Below are positions 8,654 to 42,929 of a DNA stretch of 46,492 bases, in pieces. Position 1 is the first letter of the stretch; every line of letters starts with the position of its first letter. A model generated the notes under the pieces. It had not been told where the DNA came from, made no database searches, and saw nothing but the letters and a program-made list of their open reading frames with translations. A program made the position numbers and the translations under genes. This DNA comes from Neolecta irregularis DAH-3 (lineage: Eukaryota): positions 1 to 46,492 of the forward strand of contig LXFE01004399.1 of NCBI GenBank assembly GCA_001929475.1. The letters run 5' to 3'.

Positions 8654-8764
8654 CGGCGGTGGAGGGGAAACACCAATGAACTATTTATAATTCTCATATT
8701 TATCATTGGTAAATTTCAATTTCAAACACCTGGAAACATCCAGTTTCCCGTTTTTCAGTTGAAG

Positions 8765-11700
8765 ATGTCTGTGAAATCCTCACTTTCGCCCTCTCAAACC
8801 CATTTAAAACCAGTTGGAGGCATACATAATAGTAAGTCATGGGTCACCCCACAACCCAGGGCCCAATGGTCTGAATGGCCTGAACTTTCCATTGAAGTCT
8901 ACGATACTCCGCCAAAGTTTACCAGCTTTGATTTATTTCTTGCATTTCGAGAACAGGGAACTATCATTTGGGCAGAAGTATATGAAAGAAATGCGGACGT
9001 TGCCAAACCAGACAAAGCTAGAGGAATCTTGCGTTTTAGGTATTATTTGTCGGATTTGCTTGGAGTTGACATCATCAGGCCTGTGCCTCGTACTGACTTT
9101 TGGAACCAAGAGCGTATGCGAACTGATGGCACAGAAATCACATTCAAAATACTTCGTTATTTCCCCAGAGAAATCACTTATCTCGGAACCAAACTACCGC
9201 AAAGCGAGACCTTTATGAGCTCAGAAATTGGGTTTGGCCAGTTGGCTGGAGAGCGAATCGCTCATATATCTCATCGAGTCCCTTCATCGACCTCGATCAC
9301 CTTTGACAATCAAAAACGACAGTTTTTATTTGAATTTTCGTTTCACTACGATACCCGTCGATATCGTTTGCGGTTCGATTATACTCAGTTGACCGGAGGA
9401 ACCTTTTACATGCAACCCATTCCAGGAACTAGAGATTCTTACCTGGTATTTACCGTTAAAACTCCGCCGTTACTTTCCCGGAAGATTCAAGACGACCCGT
9501 TGAAGATACATGCCAAAGAGATAGAGCGGATCCAAAGTCGCCCATGGGAAGACAAATTCCAGTGGGTTCGTGTAAGTAGGATCGCCAAGGAAGGCTCGAT
9601 TCGTGCGAGGGATGATTGTAAGCCTGAAATTATTCAGATCGGTATAAACGGCATTAAACTGGGTTAATTCTACAGGAAGAAGACTGACTTATTGTCTGCG
9701 ATTATCAAAGGGCATTCGTGACTCGAACCGTCTCGCTAACTTTTTGCGCAGTGTTAAATGTCTAAATCTGGATGTGAACGAAACGGCCGTGTTCGACATT
9801 CTGCTCGATAAGCCAATCCATCTTCCTAATCTTGACAATGTGGCTTTTAACGTCCGCTACCTTTTACAATGCTGTTTGACGTTTAATGTCTTCACGGAAA
9901 GTTGTCTTTGCGAAGAATTCGTCAATGTCTTGACTCAATTAGCGCCAGGCGACGCTTGTGAATATTTGAAGGGTCTAATTATTCTTCGTAACACTGTTTG
10001 GAACCCTCTTGAACATATTATCGAGCATGCGACAATGAAATCTACCCCACCGAAACCGTTACCTATTTATTGTGTTGAGATGCGACATTGCACTATTACC
10101 CCGACCTGTATAACTGTATGTCCGGCCGATATCGAAACAAGCAATCGTATCACTCGCAAGTTCAGAAAGTATACCGAATACTTTATTCGAGTGCAATTTC
10201 TTGACGAGGTCCACAAGGTACATTTTGCCCTCTAAAGCAGTCACCTAATTGCAGGGCCGCCTACAATCAGATATGAAGGCTGATCTGATGGGTGCATACA
10301 ATCGTATCTTTGATGTCCTGAACGACGGGCTCGAGATAGAAGGCCGAAAATACGAGTTTTTGGCATACTCCAACTCGCAACTTCGTGAACATGGCTGTTA
10401 TTTCTTTCATACTACACCAGAAATGAGTGCAGATGAAATAAGGAATTGGATGGGTGACTTTTCCAATGAATATACAGGTCAAGTTTGTCCAAATACTCCA
10501 GTTAATCTCTAGTCGCTCGATTCGGTGCTCGAATGGGGCAATGTTTTTCAACAACAATGGACGTCATAACCGATTTTGATATACATGAAATCCCAGATAT
10601 TAAAAGGGGTTCCAGTTGTTTCACAGACGGAATCGGAAAGATATCGAAAGAAGTTGCAAAAGAGGCTGCTAAAGTTATACATATGAGCTACCACTCGGAG
10701 CCTTCTGCTTATCAGTTCCGTCTCGCTGGTTCTAAGGGGGTCCTCACAGTTGATCCAACACTTGAGGGCCGACAGATACATGTTCGGGCTAGTCAAACGA
10801 AATTCGAGAGTAAGCATAAAATTTTGGAGATCAACAATTGGTCAAGATATGCCATTGCCACCTTGAGTAGACAGGCCATAATTGTCATGACAGCGCTTGG
10901 AGTTCCAAATATCTCGTTCATTGATATGCAAGATGCACAAATTGCAGAACTCGATGCTATGATGATAAACGACAGGACAGCGGTAGCCATATTGTCGAAA
11001 AATGCAGATGATTTTGGTGAAATGGCAATACAGGCGAATTAAATAGTCAGTGCTAATATTCCTAGCGAATTATATCGGATTTGCTTGATGCCGGTTTTCG
11101 CGAAAGAGGAGATACATTTGTCTCGAATTTGGTACGCTTATACAAGAATTGGTGTCTCCGCAACCTTAAACAAAAGGCTAAAATTATCGTTCCGAATGGA
11201 GTTCATGTTTTTGGTTTTTTATACATTACTAATGAATCACACTAACGTTAGGTGTCGTTGACGAGACACTTTCTCTCAGAGGCCATCAAGAGGGTGCCGA
11301 AGATGACTTGCCAGAGATTTTTTGCCAGGTTTCCGAGCACGCCGAGTCATCTAATTCTCGAGTTATTAAAGGGAAATGTATTGTTGTAAGTTTCTTTGTC
11401 CGTTATTTTCGCCGATTCATTAGTATCGTAATCCACTATTGCATCCTGGAGACGTCAGGGTCGTCAATGCAGTACACTGCGAAAAGCTGATGCATCTCCG
11501 TGATGTCGTCGTATTTCCAGCAAGAGGATCACAAGATATACCGAGCATGTGCAGTGGAGGTGATCTCGATGGTAAAAAAATAATGATTGCGCTCTCCTGC
11601 TGACTTTCAAAAGGTGATACCTTTACCGTAATTTGGGACCCAACGCTTCTTCCAAAAATTGTAAACTGTGAGCCAATGAACTCTACCTCTTCCGAAGCAG

Positions 11701-12725
11701 TAACGGAAACAAAAGAGAAGAGAAGACGAAAGAAGATACCTACCGTTAAGGAATTAAAGATGTACTTTGTTCAGTATATCATGGTATACAGCTTTCATAA
11801 TCCAAAAGGATGCTAATTAGTTCCATAGAACGATAACCTTGGGTTGATAGCACATTCGCATCTCGCTCTGGCGGATGCCAAACCAATGGGCGTCTTTGAT
11901 GAAGATTGTATGCATATATCGTTTATTTGCTGAATGTACAGGTCTGCAACTGGCGAGGTTACATTCCAATGCTGTGGATTTCCCCAAGACTGGGATAGAG
12001 GTGGCACTTCCTTCCCATCTTCGACCGAGAACATATCCTGATTACATGGAAAAGAAACCTAGGATGACCTGTTTGTTCCTGGATGGGAAGAGGCACTCAT
12101 TTCAAGATCAGTCACATGGTATCCTGGGTATTTTATACAGAAAGATACATATTGAAGATTTTTATCCACTTCTGGGTACAACTTGAACACGAAGTTTGAC
12201 TAACGAGAGCCCCTCATTCCGATCCGCTTCTCAAGGTCAAATGTCAAGAAGAGCACTACAACTTTGCTGTTGCAGAGAAAGTAGTATATGATCTGGCAGT
12301 GCATCATTTGATGATTAAATATGGAATCAAAACAGACTATGAAGTCTTCACAGGTTTCATCATCTCTCCGTTATCAGTGTCCGGAAAGAAGGAATACCAA
12401 CTTAGAGAAACGATTTGGAGAGAAGCATGCCACTCTGTGTTTTAATTATTGACATCTTAGTACAGTGTCGTGAGAGATTTGACTCGTAGACGCTTGTACA
12501 GCTATGTTGAAAGTTTGTCTGGAAACCTTGCCGAAAACTTGCGCAAAGTTGTTTCGGCTACGTATTACATTACTGTACAAGAGCAGACTGAGAAATGGCA
12601 ACAAGAAGAGCAGGTTGCATCTAGAGTATCGTTTCCCTGGGTATTTCACGACGTATATTTCATGTTAATCAAATTGCTCACATTAGACCTTGATTGATAT
12701 TGTAAGAGGAAACAAAAAAGGGTAG
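8765..12725 (+). CDS. RNA-dependent RNA polymerase of the RNAi pathway (Rdp1/QDE-1/SAD-1 family), about 14 introns
   Basis: YEFLAYSNSQLREHGCYF, ARMGQCFSTT, FTDGIGKIS, PSAYQFRLAGSKGVL, RNPLLHPGDVR, catalytic SGGDLDG|DTF (intron 11572-11613), LHSNAVDFPKTG and SFPW. Reading frame traced through all exons. Confidence 0.93.
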
Positions 12726-28406: not shown

Positions 28407-30335
28407 CTAAGGGCCATGATCGGAATTATTTCCGTCCTTCAGATTGTTGTGAATATATACTTTCAGCCAAGGCCATGATAGTGTTTCCACCTTTGAAAAA
28501 ACATCCAGTTCCTCCATACTTCCATCGTCGAGTATTTTCAGATCCTTTATGCGGCAGATGAGACAAAGAGCTTGCTGATAAATGCTTGAAGTCTGCAGTT
28601 CCGGAAGTGCTTCCATAGCGATGTATGCTCGATTCACTAGTTCCCACGAAGCTTGGTCTTCTAATTCGTACTTGATGAGATCTATAAGAAGCAGGATGGT
28701 TGCTAAAAGCGGACTAGTCATCATCCAAGTTTGGCCGTACCAGCGGAATTTCTCGATTTCTTGACTTCGAGTTTCGAACGCAATGATCATCTGTAATGTG
28801 CGACGCGCCCCCTCTAAACACCTTTCACGAGAGTATGGATACCGTTTGTGGGCGAAAGGTACATTGAGGCACATCAGTATGCGGGAAATTGCATATTCCA
28901 TCAGTAATGCTTGAAAGAAAACTCTAGGATCTGGATCGTTAAAAGATAGATGGAGTGCTATTTTGATCTCAGCTTCCAGTTCACGAAAGGATGAATCCAA
29001 TACAAGAATTCCTTCATGCGTCGGGGGTGAATGTGAATAGGCAAGAGCGTACATATCGGGTAGAAAGAGGGCTATTTGACATTGGTAAACAACCCATTTC
29101 ATACGATCTCGAATTCGGGGCTCATTCCCGTCCAAATCGGCATTGTAGCTTGGCCCTGGACAATCCAAATCATCTTTGCGAATTCTGGAGGGAAGGCCTT
29201 CGTGCCAGGAAGTAGCGCTGTATATGGTCAGAATAGGGAGAGTTAAACACTTTTTGCCTTTCGTATATACGAATTACTGTCCACATTCGGCGTCGAATTT
29301 CACATGCGAGGGGAGACAGGCCAAACTGAACTGGATCTCGAGGAAGGCTTCGGATTAGGTTTCATCGCGACCTTTGGAATGTATACCTCAAGGCATGGGC
29401 CATTCTAACCATGAGACCACTATGCGTCCAGATCATCGCTACTAGTTAGCGCATTGACTTGACATAAATCTCACGAGGAGGTATGATATCAACGTTGAGT
29501 TGATTGACGCAGTGGACCTGCATCACATCCATGTCGTAATTTTCGATATACTTGCCGTGTCGCAGACTTTCCATTAGACCATCCTGTAATTCTTTTCTGA
29601 GCTGAAGCAGAGGCCTTTTGTAATATTTGAGTAATGGCTGCAAGCCCAGGTCATCCTCTCGTATGAATGTTCTGAGTGTAGCACAATAAACTGCCAGCAG
29701 AATAGAGATCCAGAATGGGCGTCCAGGTTGGATCATGACATTGGGAGCGGTGTCAACATACCTATTCCAAAAGGCAAGATGTTCTCCCAGGAATGTCGGA
29801 ATATGTATATAGACAAGAACCTCAGGTATTGTATCAATGAAACGACGAAGAAAAAGATCTGATATCTCAGGGGTCGGGATGAGTTGTCGTATGGGTTCGG
29901 GAAGCAAGGGAAGCAAACTGGGGAAGTCTTCTGTAGATTGAAAATCCTGTTTATCGGTTGACCGAACAGCCCCATGAATTGTTGCCTTCCCTAGTTACAA
30001 AGCGCCGACTGGTTAAGAAGAACCGTACGGGAAGCTGCGCGATTTCTCTTAAACCCGCAATATCAGTAGAATTTTCCTGAGCTTCTGATTGGAGTCTTGC
30101 CAACTCTGCTTCTGCTTCCCGAAGTCTATCAAGCAATTGGTCTGAATCTTCAATAATCACGCTCCTAAGAAAGTCAGCTCCCTATAGTAAAAGAAGCACC
30201 CTACGGATCATCATAGACACATTCTTCTCCCCGCTTCACACATGTCTCGCAAGGTAGTCTGCGATTGCACCTCATCTTTTTGCTTCTGCATAGTTGACAA
30301 CTTTGAGGTATCCTACGTCTCTTGGCCAAATCCAT
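28407..30335 (-). CDS. Zn(II)2Cys6 transcription factor with fungal-specific TF domain (copy A)
   Basis: Exon 1 reads MDLAKRRRIPQSCQLCRSKKMRCNRRLPCETCVKRGEECVYDDP; later RDPVQFGLSPLACEIRRRMW and FRWYGQTWMMTSPLLATI. Confidence 0.87.
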
Positions 30336-32911
30336 GAGAATAAAGAGCGGACATCCGGAGAGGGAAAACGCGGTAGATAAAACGAAAGGCTATAGTTTTA
30401 GACGCGAGATCCTATGAAGTCATCACAAGCTCAGTGTATCCTTAGTTCTTGGTCGAGTCCTTGTAGAATGCCAGCCTGTTTGTCATGGTCGCGGCAAGCT
30501 CCAGCTCAGAATGGATTCGGAGGCCGAGACTTTATCCACGTACAATCCTTTCAGGGCTAAACAGGACATCTCATTGATCGTAATGGTCTACGTGAATGCG
30601 CCAGCATTGGGTGTAATTATATATCACGATATATTCATGTGAAGAATATAATCAGCGTAAACGCTATTAACATCCTGGAAAGCTCTGAAGTAAATATCGC
30701 TTAAAGGGCAAATGACAATGCGTTTTCAACTCTTGTCGTAAAGTAGAACGCATTGCACCAATTTGGGTGACTTCGCCTCCTATACGAGGATATTTTTAGC
30801 TTCATTTTGACAATGTGTCAAGAAATCATTCAGAGACGATAAGAGAAGGCCATTAGACATAATTTCTCTCAGTATAAAAGGCAAGTTCTCTAAATGTGAT
30901 AGAAATAACAGAAAACTGTCGCAAGCAGCTCCAATCCGGAGGCATGATGTTCTCAGAATTTCATCCGGCTAGGTAATGCGTTAATAATCGCTGCCGGAGG
31001 CCTATTATGGCGTTTCCTAACTAGTGTTTCCAAGTATTTCTGGCTTAACCCGGTTGTCTGAATTATCAATGACGTCCACTTTGAGTGAGGTGGGGTTTGA
31101 AATCAATGAGAAATGAGCTCCCGAAATCATGGACGTGAGTTTACGTGCAATGAAACGTATGAGCGAAGAGGCAATTTTAAAATGACGACATATTCCATTT
31201 ACAGACTTTAATTGAAACCACGCGAATTCTAGCCTCACCCGAAATCTCAGTAGAAAAGGGGCTTTAGTCGATCGACCATTGAAGCTATGTTCAGGTGTAA
31301 AACCATTCTAGTAAACCCTGTCCTCAAATAAAGCGTTATAATGCCTACAGGGATACTGCGCAAAGGCCTGATTCAAACAGTTAATTGGCCGCATGCCTTG
31401 GAAGACTGACAGATATGACGGAAAAGAGACAGTAATCTCACATGGTCATGACGACATCTTCCTAAAAAAAAGATTTCTTAGAGGCGACAAGCAGTGTTTA
31501 TGCCACTTCAAATACCGTTTAATATGCATCGCTATGGCGTTAACAGTTGTTTCACATACCCCGCTTTATCACAATTTCGCTTTAGTGCCAATTCATCTTA
31601 ACAGTCAGAGGCACTATGGCGTTTATTGCTTTATTTATCGCTTTAGTCGCTCTCGTTGAGGAGACGCCCGTTATTGCTGCATCCAACAACGACGTTTCAG
31701 AAACTAAAACTAGGGTCCAGCGTAGAGATCCGGTCGTGAAGCGCCAAATATCAGCATAGAAAACCGGGAGGACAAATGTTGCTAGAGATTCAAACTTTCG
31801 TTCAACGTCATAGTGGTGAAGCATCAAATGTCAAGGCAGAAATCAGGAGAGGACGAAAGGTTTTGCCAAACATCTTTCTTCCACCCCCAGTACTAGCTCG
31901 AGCGGGATGAAGGATACTACCAGTCATATACAAAAGTAGACTGAGATTTAATAGAACAACTGTTTGATTGACAATTCGAACAAGTCAACATGCCCCTTCG
32001 ACTCCCACTGGGGCATTGCTCATCAACACCTCTCACGAGTAAAAAATTCCAGTCTTTGTCGGAGAGGAATAGTTCGACATGTGGTTTGTAAGTGTGCAGC
32101 TAGCGGTGTTGTACTATATATTCAAGTCTGTTTGCCAATGAATCAGTGACTAGGCCTGTTATATACAATCTTGACGTGCCATGCATCTGCTTTCATTATC
32201 ATTATCATTATCACTAGCACTAAAACTTTCTTATTCCCTTCAGTGTATCGCATCGCGGGGATAATACGTGTACCTTCCTCGTACGATCAAGTGAAAATTA
32301 GGATGTCCTTATTCTTAAACTCTTTAGGATGTACAAATATGTCTATGAATATTTGCTCTTTTTTTCAGTCAAGGGTTTCTCATCTTGTCGAAGTGCGGAA
32401 ATTTTTCCTGCTTTCGAGGTGTAAGCTATGCGCTTAGAAGTACGATAAGACCAAGTGTTATAACTAGCCTAAGTATTCGTACTTGGCTAGGAATATCCAA
32501 CTTCCGCCTTTATATACTTCCCGTCAAGCCACCTTGCCGTATTGGTAAGATATACCCTAGGCAGTTCGAAAGCTAGAATTTTCTATGACTCTGGGAAATA
32601 GTCTCCATTTTGAACCGACTATCCCATGGTAATCTCGCTATTTGGGATGACCTGTTAGTCTTGGTATGGAGGCATGACCAGAGATTAGAAAACATTGACA
32701 TAACGATCTAGCGGTGTGAAGGCATTCATACTCTTTGGCAACCTTGAATCTTTTCCAGTAATTAAAGGAATTCAGTAACAAGGCTGCAGAATCTGTCTAA
32801 AGTGAGGGTCATAAAACACAGATAAAAATTCAGATATGATATACAAATACCGCACTGGGTGAAAAAAGAAAAAGCACACAAGCGCATCCAATGTAATAAA
32901 GAGGACATCGA

Positions 32912-33307
32912 TCAGTATTTCGCGACTGGAGGATAAGCTGGAGCTTGATAGGCAGGCTGTTGTTGTCCGTACTGTTGTTGAGCGTATTGCGGGCCTTGAT
33001 TATACTGGTACTGGAGCTGAGATGGCTGTTGATTCTGGTTGAACTTGTTCATGCCGAATCTTCCCATGAAACCACCTGCTTGTGTGGACGGTTGACCCTG
33101 TACACAAAGGCGCCTACGTCTCGAGCGAATTGCGCAAAGAGCAAATAGCACTGTGAGTGTAACAGCTCCACCGAGCAAAATCCATCGTCCAAAAGAGGAC
33201 CAGCGGCTTTGATAGTAACATCGTCCAAATGAATCACAGTAGTATCCGTATGACCGAACAACCAAATGCTGCGTTGTGGCACCGGCTATCTGGGCGAGAG
33301 CAGGCAT
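32912..33307 (-). CDS. Small single-pass membrane protein, RCR (chitin regulation / Congo red resistance)-like
   Basis: YYCDSFGRCYYQSRWSSFGRWILL, a TM helix, an RRRR stop-transfer segment and a Q/Y/P-rich tail ending APAYPPVAKY. Confidence 0.7.
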   Translation of the reverse strand: MPALAQIAGATTQHLVVRSYGYYCDSFGRCYYQSRWSSFGRWILLGGAVTLTVLFALCAIRSRRRRLCVQGQPSTQAGGFMGRFGMNKFNQNQQPSQLQYQYNQGPQYAQQQYGQQQPAYQAPAYPPVAKY

Positions 33308-33656
33308 TTCCTTTCGGTGCGGTTGAAGTTGAAATGTGCGGAAGTCGGTTATTTTATACAACACTGCGCCTTGTTACCTTTATTGGCAGTTTACATGAAC
33401 CAAATTTGATGATAGCTATTATTAGAACTAATCTCAGTATTTTTCACTGATTATTGATGCAGTTAATGAGAACTTTAGGTCTGCTTCTTGCCCATCAAAT
33501 TTGAATATTGGATGAAAAGCGTTATTATAATATTTCATTGGATACCTCAAGCCCTACCATATTTTCCCAAGCTATTACGGCGATGGAGCACCAACGTTTT
33601 GGATAGAATACTATACGCACTTGGATTTGAGATAACCCCAAATCACTAATGAGATA

Positions 33657-36410
33657 TCACGAAATCACCTCCCAGTCCTTTCTTTGGATAACCTCAAACT
33701 GCGTAGGATCCATTACAAGCTCTAGTTCTGTAAGGATACAGGGTATATTCTTACCAATACAGCAAGTGGCTTTAGTGATATTGACAGCATTAAATAAGAG
33801 GGTATATAAAGAAGGGAACCACATATACCTAACCTGGGTTACATTCATATAACTTAGGTTAGACAATTAAACCTAGTCATATTTGTACCCGAAGCGAACC
33901 ACTTACAAGTTCCCTAGAAATCCATGTCATGTTTCTGCTAAACTACCTGGCACAAGCACCTCGAATATCGACAAGTAATTTTGGACACCTGTTATGATCT
34001 ATATTCCCTCTAATTGCAAATCTTGCATATTCGCTTTGAGTTTTCTGAAGTTGATCAGACCCTTCCAGGCTCTCATTTTTACTCTTCATTATACAAATGA
34101 GTCCTTTGAAAGACATCCACATAAAAGTCCGGCTGGATGACATCAATGAGTAGTCTTTCCTGAGTTTCGATAACTCTTGACCCTTGGACCAGATGTTCAG
34201 AGCATAATGTTGAGACGTCCTCCCAGGTCGAAATTTCTGAAGTCGGTGGATTGGCAGTTAGTGACCCAGAATGTACAATGGACACTGCAGGCATCGTACA
34301 ATCAAGAGGCTTACTAATAATTTCAGTAGATCTTTCAAAGTCAGCAATGTTTACGAGAAACGGCCTCTAGGAATAGTTATCCGAATATACTGGCAAACTT
34401 TGAACAATGCAGCATTTTTTATTGTTCGAAGTACGTCCTGGCTATAAATACTTTCAGTAAAACCGGGTTGTTACCTTGGTAGATAGTCGCATGGTCCATT
34501 TCATGCCCAAGCCACTTTTACCAGCAATGACATGCTCTTTGTCCGTTTGAGCACCTATCACTAACTCAAAGACTTGATTATCCGGAGTTGTCGATGCTTC
34601 TCCTGGAATCTCGGCCTTGCCGCGCCTGTCACCATATAGGGTGACATTATTAATCAACTGCAACCGAACTCTTGAAATCTAGCTGTAATTAGTTTCTTCA
34701 ATGAGCAGGACGGTCCTTTTTTGAACTATTGTTCTCTATTCGAATATCCACTACAACATCTTCCCCAGATGGAATTAGGGGTTGTTCAATCTTTGCTGAA
34801 ACAAAAACTCCATGTTCAGTCGTTGTCATTCGAAGTGGTTGTTGATATTCTGCATTGCGCAGGTCCCAGGTTCCTACAACATCCACTGATTCGGATTTTT
34901 CAATAATCTCTGTGGTTCCAAGCATTCTAACTTTGGTGTATCCTGTTATAACGTATTTGATCCTCGCAACTTCGACTTCCGTACTAGATGGACTATCTTT
35001 TGGAAGATTAAAGGTAAAAGGAAATGAATGTAATCCTTCTTTAGCTTTACGGTAACCTTCAGAATCAGGTGGTGGATGAGGGAATGAGACTGCCGATGTG
35101 ATACTTTCAAAGTTACGACAACGAATGTATGGCAAAGTTTGCGAGGGTAATTGGAAAATATGGCGAGATTGAAGGAATACAAAAGCGCGCGAAGGATGAG
35201 ATGGCCGAGATTGGACTTCTTTGATAGTTCAGCATTTTGAAAGGGCTCGAAAGAAACCTTCATAACCCAAAAGTTCGATTCCTATCTCCCCAACAGTGAA
35301 AGAACCTAGCTTCTTGGAACCGAAACTTTTACTGCTTTTAACGACAAGGTCCATTCTGCCAAATATTTCGCCTCCTGCTACGAATGTAGTTTTGTGAAGT
35401 ATGATTTTAATCTTGATCATACGAAGATGCGCAAATGTGTTAACCGTCGGATGACGTATGGCTGGAAACGATAACTCCGGATGTCTGATTGGAGGAAAAG
35501 GTAAATGGGTTAAAGTTATCAAAGGGTCTGATTTCAAAGTGGAATAAACCCCAGCAGACGACGGTATATGTTGGAGAGAACCATGTGGGATTTTAGGGAG
35601 AAGCCTTATGTTCGACTTCTCTGTCGAATGCTGGCTCCTGAAAGATTGTTGGTAGTCCGAAAAAGAAAGCGTCGGCGAAGAAGATCGATTTGGAGTAGTT
35701 ACGAATTCGGAGGAAGATCTTAGAGTTTGGAGGGATCTCCCATATTGACTTTCAATCGACGTATGATAGGAGGGACGAAATGGCTCTGTTTCTCCGGGAG
35801 ATATAGACGGAATCAATGAAACTGGAGAGAAATGGCTTGATTGCGTATTATGCCTTCCAATACCAGAATCTTGCTGACTTGGCAGAGAGGTCGTGCTACA
35901 GCCTGGATTTCCGTCGAATTGTCCGACATCCAGAATCGCTGGTGCATCTGACCAGTCCCAAGCATATGAAGGATAGAAGTCCGAAGGCTGTTCCTCAAAA
36001 TTGTTCAAGTTAGAAGAAATAAGCGAATGATATTTTCCGAAACCTGGTCTGGCAGAAACGTGCGGAGGGGCGATTATGCACGAATTTCGATATGATTCCT
36101 CCCCTTTGTGTGGAGTCAGGGGAACTCCAACTTGATGATCCTGGGAGAATTGAACGGGTACAAGTTCTTTCGGAATCACAGGGTAGAATTGTTCATTTCT
36201 CTGGGATATTTGTGTTGGACTGTCGAGACAATCTGAATCTGGAGAGGGATTTCGGAAACCAGGGGTTGACAGATGCTGTCTAGTCACGGCAGGACTTTTA
36301 TATTGGTCCAATGCCGGAGATGGCTTTGCATAGCCAGAATGGGCTTCCCCGGGTGGTTCAAAACCATCATAGGAGCAATAGTCTGGCATCCAATTGCTTT
36401 GATGGTTCAT
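33657..36410 (-). CDS. Arrestin-fold protein with a long disordered N-terminus
   Basis: IILHKTTFVAGGEIFGRMDL, GLHSFPFTFNLP.DSPSS....ARIKYVITG and GEDVVVDIRIENNSSKK (arrestin N/C domain patterns). The 3' exons are less certain. Confidence 0.72.
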
Positions 36411-37884
36411 GGAGTGGGACAGGAAGGAATTTAATTAGCGGGCCGGTCTAAGAAGGGAAAGTGTGTTGATGCGAGATGCATGTTGCAACCCGCGGGAACA
36501 AACTGCCGACTTTGTGGTCTTATCGGTGAAGATGCGAGTTTGTCAGACACCCACCGCACGCCACTGACGTAACCCGATACCCGATGGCCGATCTTGTTGT
36601 TTTGTCTGAGGTGTCTGATCCCGTATCATTCTATTTGCACAAACAGCAACAGACAACAGAAACTTGTCCCTTAGTGATTTTCTTGAGCTGTGCATGAGAA
36701 CATCGTGTATTGCCGCGAGGCTTTGTATCATGCCGAGTACATCTGCGGTGCCGGTTGCAGTTCTCAGTATGAGCAGGGGCATGAGGACTATTCCGAAAGA
36801 AGGTGCTTCCCAGAATGGACTGTGGCAGAGAGTCTTTGGCTATCCGCCCAAAGTCTGCTCAAAGCAACACAGAGGAAATCTTTGGGGTAAATGAAAGAGT
36901 CGTCAATTCTACCGAGTCGGCTGGAAGTCGAACCCTTATACCACCAACGTAGCCAATTCCGCTTCCGTGGAAAGGTCGAATCGGCCCTGCGTATGCAACT
37001 CTATATGCTCCAAGTTCAAACTGACCTCCTCTAGCTACTTGAACACTATCCTTTGCGGATTGGAACCTCCAATTTTCTGCTAATATGCTGGATGGAAAAA
37101 ATCAACAAACCCGAAAATAAGGACCTAGACATGATGATCTCTCAAAACTCATTGAATGGAACGAACGATTCGGAATCCGGTTTTTAAGAATGTCAAGCGA
37201 AATGTTTCCTTTTGCCAGTCATAAAATCTCTGGTGATATTCTCTAGAGCATGCAGACAAGGCATTGAAAGAAGCTGGCAGACTCGCTGTGAAATATAGCC
37301 ACAGACTGACCACTCATCCTGGTATTGAAACTATGTGAATTATATCTAATAGAGAGGCCAGTTTACTCAGATTGCTAGCCCCCACCCAGATGTCTGTAAC
37401 ACTTAGAATACCATGTGGAAATGATAGAACGATCTGCCCTAAGCCTATGCCACTCACTGGCAAAGCTGATCTCCACTCTACAATGGCGGCCTGCTCTTCT
37501 ACTCCCTGCCGCTCTTTGCTGTTGCCAGTGCTTTCCTCTGCTGCTTGTCTCCCCATCCTCGCCTCCACCATCATCCCCAGCTAGGCTTTGTCTCTGCTTA
37601 CGCTGTATTGCAAGCTCAAGTGGGCCAGCTACAACCTATTCTGTGGAGGGCCAAAGCCCATGGGCTTTTCAGAGAACTGGGCTTTTCAAAGGACTGGGCT
37701 GGCCCATGGGCCCAGGTGAAGCTATTCAGATTGCTTATTCCAAAGTGTTATGGATTGGAATACTATCTAGACTTTGTAATAGCAGATTGTAGAGTACCAA
37801 TTGTTCCACACGGGTATTGTGGGAGTGGGACTTAAGCGATTTTTCCTCTCTGGTGTCATTGCGTAAAGAGGATCCTCACCCAAT

Positions 37885-38080
37885 AATTCGAATTTTAAGA
37901 GAAGCCATATAAATGTGGTGCACACCAAACGCGCGCTGAAAATTTGAATTTTTAAAAAAAAGCCAAGTTTTTAAAATGTGGAGCGCACCAAGCTCGAGCT
38001 CAAAATTCGAATTATAAAATAAGCCACATTTTATGAAATTTGGTGCGAAGAAACGCACCCTTAATTCGAACTTGTAAAAT
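37885..38080. repeat. Degenerate ~60-bp tandem repeat, about 3.3 copies
   Basis: Units start at 37885, 37941, 38004 and 38063 and share AATTCGAATT..AAGCCA..AAATGTGG.GC.CACCAA. Confidence 0.7.
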
Positions 38081-38236
38081 TTATTCATTGGAAACACTAG
38101 CGCATTTAATTTCGGTATAACATGGTTTGTTAGCTTGCATAGTACCAAATTAGTCGTCTCGGGACTACCATAAACACTATTCAAGACAATGAAACACTGG
38201 ATCAAAAAAAGCCTCCTTCCTCGAAATTAAAGCACC

Positions 38237-39064
38237 ATGTCTTTCCTATTCCCTCGTCCAAAGTCCTACTGCTCTATAGTGTCAGAACCCTCTGCTCGCC
38301 ATCAAGAACACCATTTTGAAAACCCCCGTGTGATCAGTGATGTTATCATCGGTCTTTCAGACGGGTTGACAGTCCCATTTGCATTGATGGCCGGCCTATC
38401 GTCACTTGGAAACGCGATCGTTATAGCCGGTGGAATGGCAGAGTTGATTTCAGGGGCTATCAGTATGGGTTTGGGAGGCTATTTAGCTGCCTCTAGCGAG
38501 GCAAAGGTACCCCATAATTTTTGGGTCAGATATTTACGACAGCACTACGCAAATGAACGGAGGAGAGAGGAAAAAGAGATCGTTGAATGTCCCGAGGAGG
38601 AAGAGGAGGAGATATTCGAAGCGCTGGCTCCTTATGGTGTCACGAGAGAAGCATGTCAACCTATTATCGAGTGTTTGAGGAAGAACCCAAAGGGATGGGT
38701 TGACTTTATGATGAAGTTCGAACTTGGATTAGAAGAGACGGGAATGAGAAGGGCTTGGGTGAGCGCTGGGACAATTGGAATTAGCTATTTTCTTGGCGGA
38801 CTGTAAGCTTCCTGCTTCTTGTATGATTCATTCCGACTGTTTAGAATCCCGATGCTGCCTTATTTCTTTATCAAAGATGCTTTAAGTGGACTTTGGGTAA
38901 GTATTGTGGTGACTGCAATTGCCCTTTTGATATTCGGATACGTTAAGAGTAGTTACATTGTTAGCCGCCGAAGTGAAGCGGTCATGGGATCCTTGCAGGC
39001 TTTAATTGTTGGTGGAGCTGCTGCATTGGCTAGTTGGGGAATCGTTAGATTGATGGAACATTGA
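38237..39064 (+). CDS. CCC1: Vacuolar Fe/Mn transporter (VIT1/CCC1 family)
   Basis: DVIIGLSDGLTVPFALMAGLSSLG, AELISGAISMGLGGYLA, DFMMKFELGL and YFLGGL|IPMLPYF; 2 introns. Confidence 0.95.
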
Positions 39065-39113
39065 AGAATAAGACATCTGGGATACTAATGATAATTGAAA
39101 TGGCTATTGTTCT

Positions 39114-40487
39114 CTAGTAGAATATGCTCCTAGTTCTATGGCATGGGATTGGTTTCGTCTCGTTCCTTGCTTGTATCTCTTTAGCAGTATCCCAGAGGAA
39201 AAAGTCGATCAGGATAGCATTAATATTAGTATATCCGAGCCTTACAATCTCCTGACGAATCTTTTCAACACACCAGATTGATGCGCCGCGAAGCTGGATC
39301 TCATATGGATGACCAGGTTCTATCACAATTTGGTTTTTGATTACGCTCTCGAGACGAGGTGAATAACGAATACAATTCAAAGTGTGGAGTATTTGAGGTA
39401 CCCTATGAACTAAGCGCCTCGAAGTTTGAGTGCCTTACCGATAGTCTGCGAACATTGTGATATGATCTATGTCACAGAAGGATCCGTACGACTCGCCGTA
39501 GAAACAAGCCCATATATCTGCCACCAATATTTGAGCGCGTTTATAAAATTTCACTACCAATAAGAACATTTACATGGACGAAATGCCTGTTCGATTCTCA
39601 AACCTATATTCATCTCTAAAGCAAGGAAACTCCTTCACAAGGTTTTCGATGAATGATATCACAGACCCGTTTGCCAATTTGAGAAAGTTCACGAACGATC
39701 CATTGTATCTCTATGGAATTAGCAAAGGTAGTGAATCTTAGATTACACCTCGCATAGGACGGACCCAGCTTGCCGCAGGCATTCCACCCGCTCCTTCCTT
39801 CCAGTTGGTTGTTAGGGCAACAATGGTTCTTACAGCATGGGAATGGGCTCCGTCGAGTCGCTTCTAAATATTCTTTCGATATCCTCATCAGAAGATTCAA
39901 CCCAGTAACTCGGAGTTGTCATTGGGATCTCTGCTGGTCAGCAGAGGGTTTTGTGAACAAGTTTCCTTCCAAGAGAGCTCTGTTAATAGCTGCACAGAGG
40001 CTCCAGTAACCAGTCCACTTCGTTCCATTTTCGAGAATACAGTAACGGTCAGGATGTGTTCCCGTGTCTTCAGAGTCAAAGTCTGACCAGAACGAGAAGT
40101 TGAGAAGGTCGATCAGAAAAATCCTGATCAATTGAGGTTCATAAGTGGTTAGAATACCAATTCAGACTTGATTCGTCCTTTGACTTGGGGTTCAAAGGAT
40201 GAGAAGCCCATGTCTCCACAGTAAAAGGTGTTTCCCTCATTGCGGAAGAAATCTAATAATGAACGAATCAGTGATAACGAGGACGTACTAACTTTGCTGC
40301 AGCTACGCATCCATCTCGATCAATAGCTATATCGAGCATGTTCTGTATATCAGCACATCCCTTTTCTGAAACATACATCACTGATGAACTCTGCCGACTC
40401 CAAAACTCCTGTTGAGTTCACTTTTGGTTTCCCGAACCGTTGCAGAAGGATCTCGCGCAACTCGGGGACCAGTTCATCCTCGCTCAT
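39114..40487 (-). CDS. QNG1: Queuosine salvage protein (QNG1/DUF2419), 8 introns
   Basis: [81 protein letters not shown] and [10 protein letters not shown]. Confidence 0.93.
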
Positions 40488-41154
40488 GGTAGAGAGGATG
40501 TAAGAGGAACTGGAAACGTCAACTTAAAATATCGCGGAACTCATGCGAATCGATCATTTCTAGAATATTACCAGGGTAAATATCACCAACGTTAATCCTT
40601 GTCACTAGCTGAACAATGGCACACCAAAATCCCTTTATCCTTGTCATACGCTCGCGCTTACTAAAATGGAAGATTGTAAGTGGGAAATTATACGCTTGGG
40701 AAGACACGAAAGGTATTGACTGGAACGCAGTATCATAGTATTCGCTAAGATCGCTAAGATCTGCAAAAAATAGTCGCGCTACGAAAATAATCGCGGGTGT
40801 ACATATGACACGCAGCCTGACGTGACTCTTGAAAATTATACGTGTCACATGAAAATGATACACGTAGTATCATAGCGGTTATCTGATGGGTTTCTCTATT
40901 ATTATACGCCTCCTTGGTTTACTACAATGACGTCGCTCATACTTGTAAAACTATAAAGTGTCCTGCGCGAAATATAAAATCCGCGAAATATAAAGGGAAA
41001 TAACCACCGCCACCACTACCACTCCAACGCTTTGCTTATACCCACCTAGATGCCTAATTATCTTGCAACCGTTGCTTCTCCACCTTAAGTCTTACAATTT
41101 ATTTGGTTCACTTTACATTAAACCTACAGAATCTCATCCTCCACAACCTCTTTC

Positions 41155-42003: not shown

Positions 42004-42929
42004 GTTGATCAAAAAGGATTGGTTTCTTCGAATTGGCCACATAGTTCTCCAGGTACTGCTCAAATGCTTTAATAGTCATGTCTGTGAATAGTGTTGCTGG
42101 TTCTCTTAGAGGTGGATCACGGATAACAGGCATCTAGGTGGGTATAAGCAAAGCACTGGAGTGGTAGTGGTGGCGGTGGTTATTTCCCTTTATATTTCGC
42201 GGATTTTATATTTCGCGCAGAACATAAGTAGTCATGTAGCTGCTCTTTAAACGGCGTTGGATAATGCTCTATCCATCCATACAAAGAATCAAAGAAATGT
42301 TTTCGCTTCATGTCATCTAAGAATCATTTTCTGATATATATCAGAACCCCCTGCAAAACTCTACAACCAGAATCTGCGCGACAAGCTACGTCATTGTAGA
42401 AAACCAAGGAAATGTATAATAATAGAAAAACCCATCAGATAACCGCTATGATACTACGTGTAGTGTGATATGCTTCTTTAGGAAGTCATTGTTACTTTGG
42501 CTGTCAATCATCTCATAGCGTCTAAAATATATAATGGAAGGCCTTCCATCGGTTCAAGTTATCTACACACCCCAATACGGGTCTGAAGGTTTTCCATGAA
42601 ACAGATCTTCGGTGATTCTCGGTTCAGTGGTGCGACTGTGAATTCAGCAACACAAGTTCATGGCAATCTCTTCTGGAATGGGGAGCTAGTAAGAATTTTG
42701 GACGAAGAATCATGTAAATTTTATTAATAACTCCATGGAAAGAACAGGCATTCAACGCTGTCTCTGTCTCATCTTCTCAATTCCTACCGCTCGGATAAAT
42801 TCTTTGAAAATATCTAATATAGTTGTCTTATTTATAAACGAATGTATAAACTCATATTTGTCGCGACCTCGATTCCATTCGGAGTAGGGCTCTAACTTCA
42901 CTCTTCAGTCTCCATTTCTTTTAATATCA

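Follow-up and report, generated by a model that had tools for sequence, protein, structure and literature searches.

Intron 4 of the queuosine-salvage (Q-salvage) gene of Neolecta irregularis is a real GA-AG intron, and it is precisely spliced. This is confirmed because three kinds of evidence support it: the genomic DNA, a transcript-like sequencing run and the introns with GT donors present at the same place in other fungi all agree with the GA-AG interpretation made in an earlier note on this DNA. The window analysed is the whole stretch of 46,492 nucleotides of contig LXFE01004399.1, and all positions refer to it. Very probably, this is an ancient phase-1 intron of the U2 type in which GT was replaced by GA at the donor in this lineage, and the ordinary major spliceosome still removes it accurately to give the main isoform. 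Taken by itself, this intron is a well-supported case of a rarity that is already known, the GA-AG type. The coordinates of the features are displayed in Table 1.

Table 1. Features of the Q-salvage gene, its GA-AG intron and related elements (a slash marks an exon-intron boundary).
Feature	Position	Strand	Basis
Q-salvage gene (Qng1/DUF2419, PF10343), 9 coding exons, 363 aa	39114..40487	-	Spliced model; 8/8 introns skipped in X2
Exons 1-5 of Q-salvage gene	40487-40377, 40342-40289, 40252-40158, 40123-39966, 39930-39834	-	Model
Exons 6-9 of Q-salvage gene	39797-39749, 39710-39587, 39553-39439, 39402-39114	-	Model
GA-AG intron, phase 1, intron 4/8 of Q-salvage gene	39931..39965	-	Sequence, HMM ranking, X2 joint, X1 DNA, orthologous GT intron
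Donor AAG/GAAACT	39960..39968	-	Pairing with U1 of the same genome
Branch-site-like GCTGAC, putative branch A 39938	39937..39942	-	Sequence; A 7 nt before intron end
Upstream AG of CAGCAG tandem acceptor	39934..39935	-	32-nt in-frame alternative, +Ala, 497.7 bits
33-nt GC-AG intron, CAG/GCATTT, Q-salvage gene	39554..39586	-	Model, X2
Second GA-AG intron (inferred), 37 nt, AAG/GACCGT, arrestin-like gene	34679..34715	-	Inferred from X2 record 11 piece lengths
Prp8 fragments	Genome contigs (G000) C1324, C4303, C2568, C2227, C3910 and others		

The host gene encodes a member of the Qng1/DUF2419 family, and two of its exons match PF10343 with 48.8 and 109.7 bits, above the Pfam cut-off of 25 bits. 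The spliced model runs from the ATG at 40487 to the stop at 39114 with no internal stop, and the statement that the rest of the gene is intact therefore stands. The other seven introns are six GT-AG and one GC-AG, and the GC donor of the latter is also present in a captured gene copy that is 87% identical. The last exon has 163 relatives, the best of them 62% identical; no close relative was found among these protein relatives or the metagenome loci, and no protein from Neolecta's own gene was found among the matches of 168-2000 aa. The product has the motifs of the queuosine-5'-phosphate hydrolase Qng1/DUF2419 (PDB 7UGK, 7U07; PMC9881137), i.e., those matching K199, D231 and Y232 of StQng1, together with the C-terminal Tyr motif; K199 and D231 have catalytic roles in StQng1 according to the same report. 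The catalytic HhH Lys and Asp are present, and nothing appears unusual in the predicted Neolecta protein when compared with known Qng1. The motifs matching K199, D231 and Y232 all lie downstream of the intron. Judging from the reading frame, splicing of the intron would be needed for the function of the gene, because translation of a transcript that keeps the intron ends after 154 aa, upstream of the residues matching the catalytic Lys and Asp.

The junction reads, on the minus strand, TTG GAA G/GAAACT...GCTGACCAGCAG/AG ATC CCA ATG, and the intron (39965-39931) starts with GA and ends with CAG. The coordinates, length of 35 nt, GA start, AG end and strand given in the earlier note all match the window sequence. 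The note had also called 35 nt the modal length; local intron lengths run from 33 to 43 nt and include this value, but 36 nt is the most frequent one in the 16 supported introns. Regarding the donor, it is complementary to the 5' end of U1 at 6/9 positions, with mismatches at -3, +2 and +5, and it is without G+5. The branch-site-like GCTGAC was compared with CTRAY, the fungal branch-site consensus. U12-type introns have an RTATCCTT donor and a TCCTTAAC branch site; a minor (U12-type) intron was ruled out, since neither the donor GAAACT nor the branch GCTGAC matches them.

Two sequencing runs of one study, X1 and X2, contain the region; both are labelled 'DNA?', X2 has no library entry, and their sample and organism codes differ. 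They were compared over positions 29400-40900 of the window (11.5 kb). An X1 contig (39639-40880, depth 487.8) matches the window across the intron with no other letters and no variant at 39964. The GA donor is present in the DNA and is not an assembly error, because this contig, at a depth of ~488, matches the window across the intron, and the GA that the note proposed to check at 39964 is seen there in the DNA. X1 is possibly the source run of the assembly, and its match excludes an assembly error, not a specimen-specific allele.

X2 has a joint from 39930 to 39966 at which exactly 35 nt are skipped (plus-strand ends CT..TC, depth 82.3). The joint has 98 letters on its shorter side, slides by 2 and is marked 'between: not known'. 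All eight introns of the Q-salvage gene are skipped in X2, and the contig with the focal joint, with its depth, is also the one in which four canonical introns are skipped. In addition, 14 listed intron-sized pieces in four genes are skipped in X2 and none of them in X1, and the X2 depth is 0 in one intergenic bin. We infer that X2 is cDNA, because it skips intron-sized pieces that X1 keeps and has this intergenic depth of 0. The transcript evidence across the junction, also proposed in the note, is thus provided by a cDNA-like run with the exact 35-nt joint. In the bin 39768-40151, X2 has a depth of 60.9, and the spliced contig by itself would give 61.1. There is no retention contig, but contigs drop rare forms and this depth is not a splicing efficiency. 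No joint using the upstream AG of the tandem acceptor, which would give the 32-nt alternative, was found among the 15 X2 joints listed.

Three alternatives bear on how these runs are read. The sequenced DNA could carry a splice-damaging GA allele, the spliced transcript coming from another individual with GT. X2 does have another sample and organism code, and its contigs are without intron letters, so the +2 base of that individual is unseen. However, this is very unlikely: over 11.5 kb, X2 departs from the window at only 3 places, of which two are shared with X1 and none lies in the Q-salvage gene, the gene is otherwise intact, and the nearby second GA intron described below would require a second private allele.

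Less probable still is a joint that is an artefact, by template switching of the reverse transcriptase or by assembly, or a +2 base that is edited before splicing, in a gene that is retained or dead. Template switching and editing are given as general alternatives for GA-AG introns in PMC7072748, and neither run is on record as RNA. Against this, the direct repeat at the joint is only 2 nt, as at the neighbouring GT introns of the same contig and depth, the joint is at the exact orthologous position, and X1 has no such joint. As for editing, A-to-I editing reads as G, and would give G, not U, at +2.

The least probable alternative is that another register is removed, GG-CA (39966-39932) or AG-GC (39967-39933), which would leave the same mRNA, as allowed by a joint that slides by 2. 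Seven registers were tested, and three of them (GA-AG, GG-CA and AG-GC) yield the observed X2 product. G+1 and a terminal AG are kept only in GA-AG, which is the register of the orthologous GT-AG introns in 34/34 cases, and the GA..AG register is singled out by this orthology.

Alternative cuts were also scored. With a profile built from 91 homologues, every deletion of 20-100 nt near the site that restores the frame and leaves no stop was ranked, 1310 in total. The top 15 places are all 35-nt removals. GA-AG reaches 501.7 bits. The highest score of all, 502.4 bits, belongs to the AA-AG register (LLEGIP), which was rejected since its product differs from that of X2. The register is thus not fixed by the protein score by itself. 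GT/GC..AG ends occur in 11 of the 1310 deletions (4 GT-AG, 7 GC-AG). The best GC-AG alternative (50 nt, 484.1 bits) has rank 326 and the best GT-AG one (50 nt, from the internal GT at 39958 to the AG at 39909, 480.1 bits) rank 426, and conserved residues are lost in both. The earlier statement that the internal GT cannot restore the frame goes too far, because GT 39958 with AG 39909 does so, at ~21 bits below GA-AG. This leaves the GA-AG interpretation unchanged, and canonical GT/GC-AG alternatives were rejected by their lower score and by the observed X2 joint.

The orthologous position was surveyed in 80 fungal-type metagenome loci. Apart from 12 duplicates, 11 loci in which the anchor motif is missing and 6 unresolved ones, an intron is present in 34 and absent from 17. 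The intron is at identical phase and position in 34/80 loci, always with a GT donor (34/34); these introns are of phase 1, lie after RAL-x-x-G and are 48-162 nt long. The orthologous intron anticipated in the note was therefore found, in 34 fungal metagenome loci of which none is from a close relative. The split codon encodes G in 18 of the 34 orthologues, D in 13 and E in the other 3. The Neolecta product has E at this codon, where G or D is usual in the family, which corrects a detail of the match with the family pattern RAL.EGIP.T.P..W given in the note. The intron would be an old GT intron whose donor was changed in place to GA, because all 34 orthologous introns have GT. A GC intermediate between GT and GA is possible, and the 34 GT orthologues include no close relative. 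Moreover, public fungal Q-salvage models (P0028, P0032, P0034, P0067, P0076 and P0093) have residues broken or skipped at the same intron position, which suggests that the orthologous intron is mis-annotated in several other fungi.

Other copies and neighbouring genes were noted in the window and the assembly. The paralogous Q-salvage copies on six other contigs begin at 39876 or further 3', leaving the intron outside. An inverted-repeat family lies upstream of the gene (40958-41063 and 42087-42235). The same repeats on other contigs (L002 1198-2467; L003-L007) enclose a decayed copy of the 3' half of the Q-salvage gene that is 87-90% identical and contains introns, and the enclosed segment also holds a piece of the neighbouring VIT1/CCC1 gene; as judged from this arrangement, the repeats with captured parts of both genes would represent Pack-type gene capture. 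One X2 contig (38110-39536) covers VIT1/CCC1 on the plus strand and the last Q-salvage exons on the minus strand, which suggests that the 3' ends of the two convergent genes overlap; the contig is not proof of a single transcript. By eye, an RNA-dependent RNA polymerase-like gene (8760-12690, plus) has two sites that look like GC donors, near 9711 and near 11035, and its GT donors are very weak; a tRNA-like sequence is found near the contig end (46286-46370, plus).

GA donors appear to recur in this fungus, because a second GA-AG intron was inferred ~5 kb from the focal one, giving 2/16. The 16 introns counted are those in 29400-40900 that X2 supports and that have coordinates, of which 14 are listed and 2 inferred from piece lengths; six X2 joints were not displayed, and these two are among them. 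The 16 introns are 33-43 nt long, with 13 GT, 1 GC and 2 GA donors. The second GA-AG intron is inferred in an arrestin-like gene with an Arrestin_N match, and its removal restores the frame SSKK/ISRVRLQL. Both GA sites are preceded by exonic AG; A at +3 is present in the focal donor (AAG/GAA) and not in the second (AAG/GAC). In this small sample, non-GT donors follow exonic AG in 3/3 cases versus 4/13 of the GT donors. U1 matches among the 16 introns are 4-6 of 9, and the focal donor (6) is at the top of the range.

GA donors make up ~0.01% of introns in plants and humans (PMC10668435, PMC5714493). The local frequency of 2/16 has a 95% interval of 1.6-38%, and one of the two introns was chosen in advance. 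Without the focal intron, 1/15 GA has a probability of 0.0015 at 0.01% (the plant GA-AG rate) and of 0.046 at 0.31% (the rate of all non-GT/GC types in Fusarium). These values in 11.5 kb would favour an adapted spliceosome (e.g., with a second-step-biased Prp8 or another changed fidelity factor) that accepts GA donors genome-wide. Such adaptation would refine the best explanation, and it is possible but on the unlikely side. A genome-wide count of AG/GA followed by a branch site and YAG gave 176 at intron spacing, 257 at off spacing, and 351 and 398 when reversed. There is no excess, which counts against adaptation, although the same pattern with GT gave 401 versus 466 and the count has no power even for GT.

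The snRNAs were considered as another source of tolerance. A single U1 was found, and its 5' end is canonical (41/209 candidates scored; assembly possibly incomplete), and U5 loop 1 and U6 ACAGAGA are canonical as well. No variant U1, U5 or U6 compensating for GA was found in the genome contigs, and no variant U1 complementary to GA was seen among the 41/209 candidates scored. Because U1, U5 and U6 are canonical, the preferred reading is that the ordinary spliceosome tolerates the GA donor. In the U6 gene (L021, G000:C1963:269-417, minus), an mRNA-type GT-AG intron of ~50 nt lies immediately downstream of the ACAGAGA region; its donor and branch site are strong. Introns of this kind in U6 are also known from fission yeast.

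Tolerance by the ordinary spliceosome could work as follows. The tiny intron may be defined from the 3' side and by its length, the branch site and YAG being placed ~35 nt from the donor. Exonic AG, G+1, A+3, A+4 and T+6 may then give U1 and U5 enough grip, and the cut could be placed without U+2. Since GT donors of the genome would themselves be weak, a change at +2 could be nearly neutral and drift to fixation.

Prp8 was examined because, in yeast, second-step prp8 alleles relieve U2A, which blocks exon ligation (the second step), and relieve 3' site changes too (PMC12707134). T532 touches the GU backbone and D1556 touches +3 (PMC9723624), and the general location of suppressor alleles is given in PMC4045393. 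In Neolecta, T532, D1556 and Q1522 (at the 3' site; yeast Q1594) are unchanged. In the linker/endonuclease part, 11/251 near-invariant columns differ, with a maximum of 5 in any of 120 homologues, which include few ascomycetes. S. pombe shares at least 4 of the rare residues, and A1431I, Y1432M, P1496Q, H1563N and S1588N (human numbers) differ from S. pombe too. M1432 recurs in a degenerate copy. In the literature searched, no link of H1563 or Y1432 to splice-site choice was found. Decayed Prp8 fragments were also observed (21 PROCN matches, 7 of domain IV and 4 of the U6-binding domain), and small contigs each hold only a part of the main copy.

The odd Prp8 residues could be relevant to GA tolerance, as a lead only. 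The number of deviating columns and the five changes not shared with S. pombe are consistent with adaptation, as is the improvement of U2A and non-AG substrates by yeast second-step prp8 alleles (PMC12707134). However, the three contacts are unchanged, the rarity of the residues was judged with few ascomycetes and is partly common to S. pombe, H1563 and Y1432 are without a splice-site link in the literature searched, and the assembly has the gene in pieces, next to numerous degenerate copies. Furthermore, a GC-to-GA change in a plant is functional without adaptation (PMC10668435). A broader proposal is more doubtful: that this is the first known fungal lineage with regular, percent-level GA donors, in which ancient GT introns were converted in place with U1, U5 and U6 unchanged, and in which the checking of +2 and of the 3' AG was relaxed by protein changes, e.g., in Prp8 at human positions 1431-1432 and 1563. 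It is kept as a tentative and rather improbable reading.

Comparison with known GA-AG systems places the ordinary-spliceosome reading in context. In the copepod Eurytemora affinis, ~12% of the donors in ten genes are GA or GG, with obligate exonic AG (PMC5714493), and GA-AG introns are also described in Oikopleura dioica (PMC7072748); the S. pombe row of the latter paper appears to have no GA-AG. The focal intron has in common with them G+1, exonic AG, A+3 (AAG/GAA) and a normal acceptor, whereas the second Neolecta intron has C at +3, unlike the copepod/Oikopleura type with mostly A. Those of the copepod have been described as recent acquisitions (PMC5714493), in contrast to the focal one, which is fungal, 35 nt long and apparently a converted old GT intron. 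Moreover, a C8U change in U1 has been proposed in the copepod (PMC7072748), and no U1 variant was found in Neolecta. In Eurytemora, automatic annotation breaks gene models at GA/GG introns (PMC5714493).

Another comparable case is intron 12 of SYMRK in Trema orientalis, where GC changed to GA and the intron is functional, GA-AG being 0.01% of introns (PMC10668435). In both cases, the donor of a conserved intron became GA by mutation, and the intron works without a known spliceosome change; the Trema ancestor donor was GC, whereas the donors orthologous to that of Neolecta are GT in 34/34, none from a close relative. Rare GA-AG introns in Fusarium graminearum, where all non-GT/GC types are 0.31% of 2604 introns (PMC3577648), provide the fungal precedent, and these and human FGFR1-3 resemble the focal intron as GA-AG sites used by the major spliceosome. 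The FGFR1-3 sites, as cited in PMC7072748 and PMC5714493, are alternative and reportedly need a canonical site 6 nt upstream, which is absent at the focal Neolecta donor. In the literature searched, with few subscription journals, no description of GA-AG introns in this fungus was found, including the available parts of PMC8476143 and of PMC7072748 with its supplement.

In these data, an intact enzyme requires the splicing of a GA intron at a position where 34 other fungal loci have GT, which would mean that an existing intron can escape the +2 rule without moving. If GA donors are as frequent genome-wide as they are locally, annotation limited to GT and GC donors would disrupt many Neolecta genes, and the tiny introns of this fungus would be ready substrates for testing what enforces U+2. 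The lineage-wide reading, if true, would be a natural equivalent of the yeast second-step prp8 alleles.
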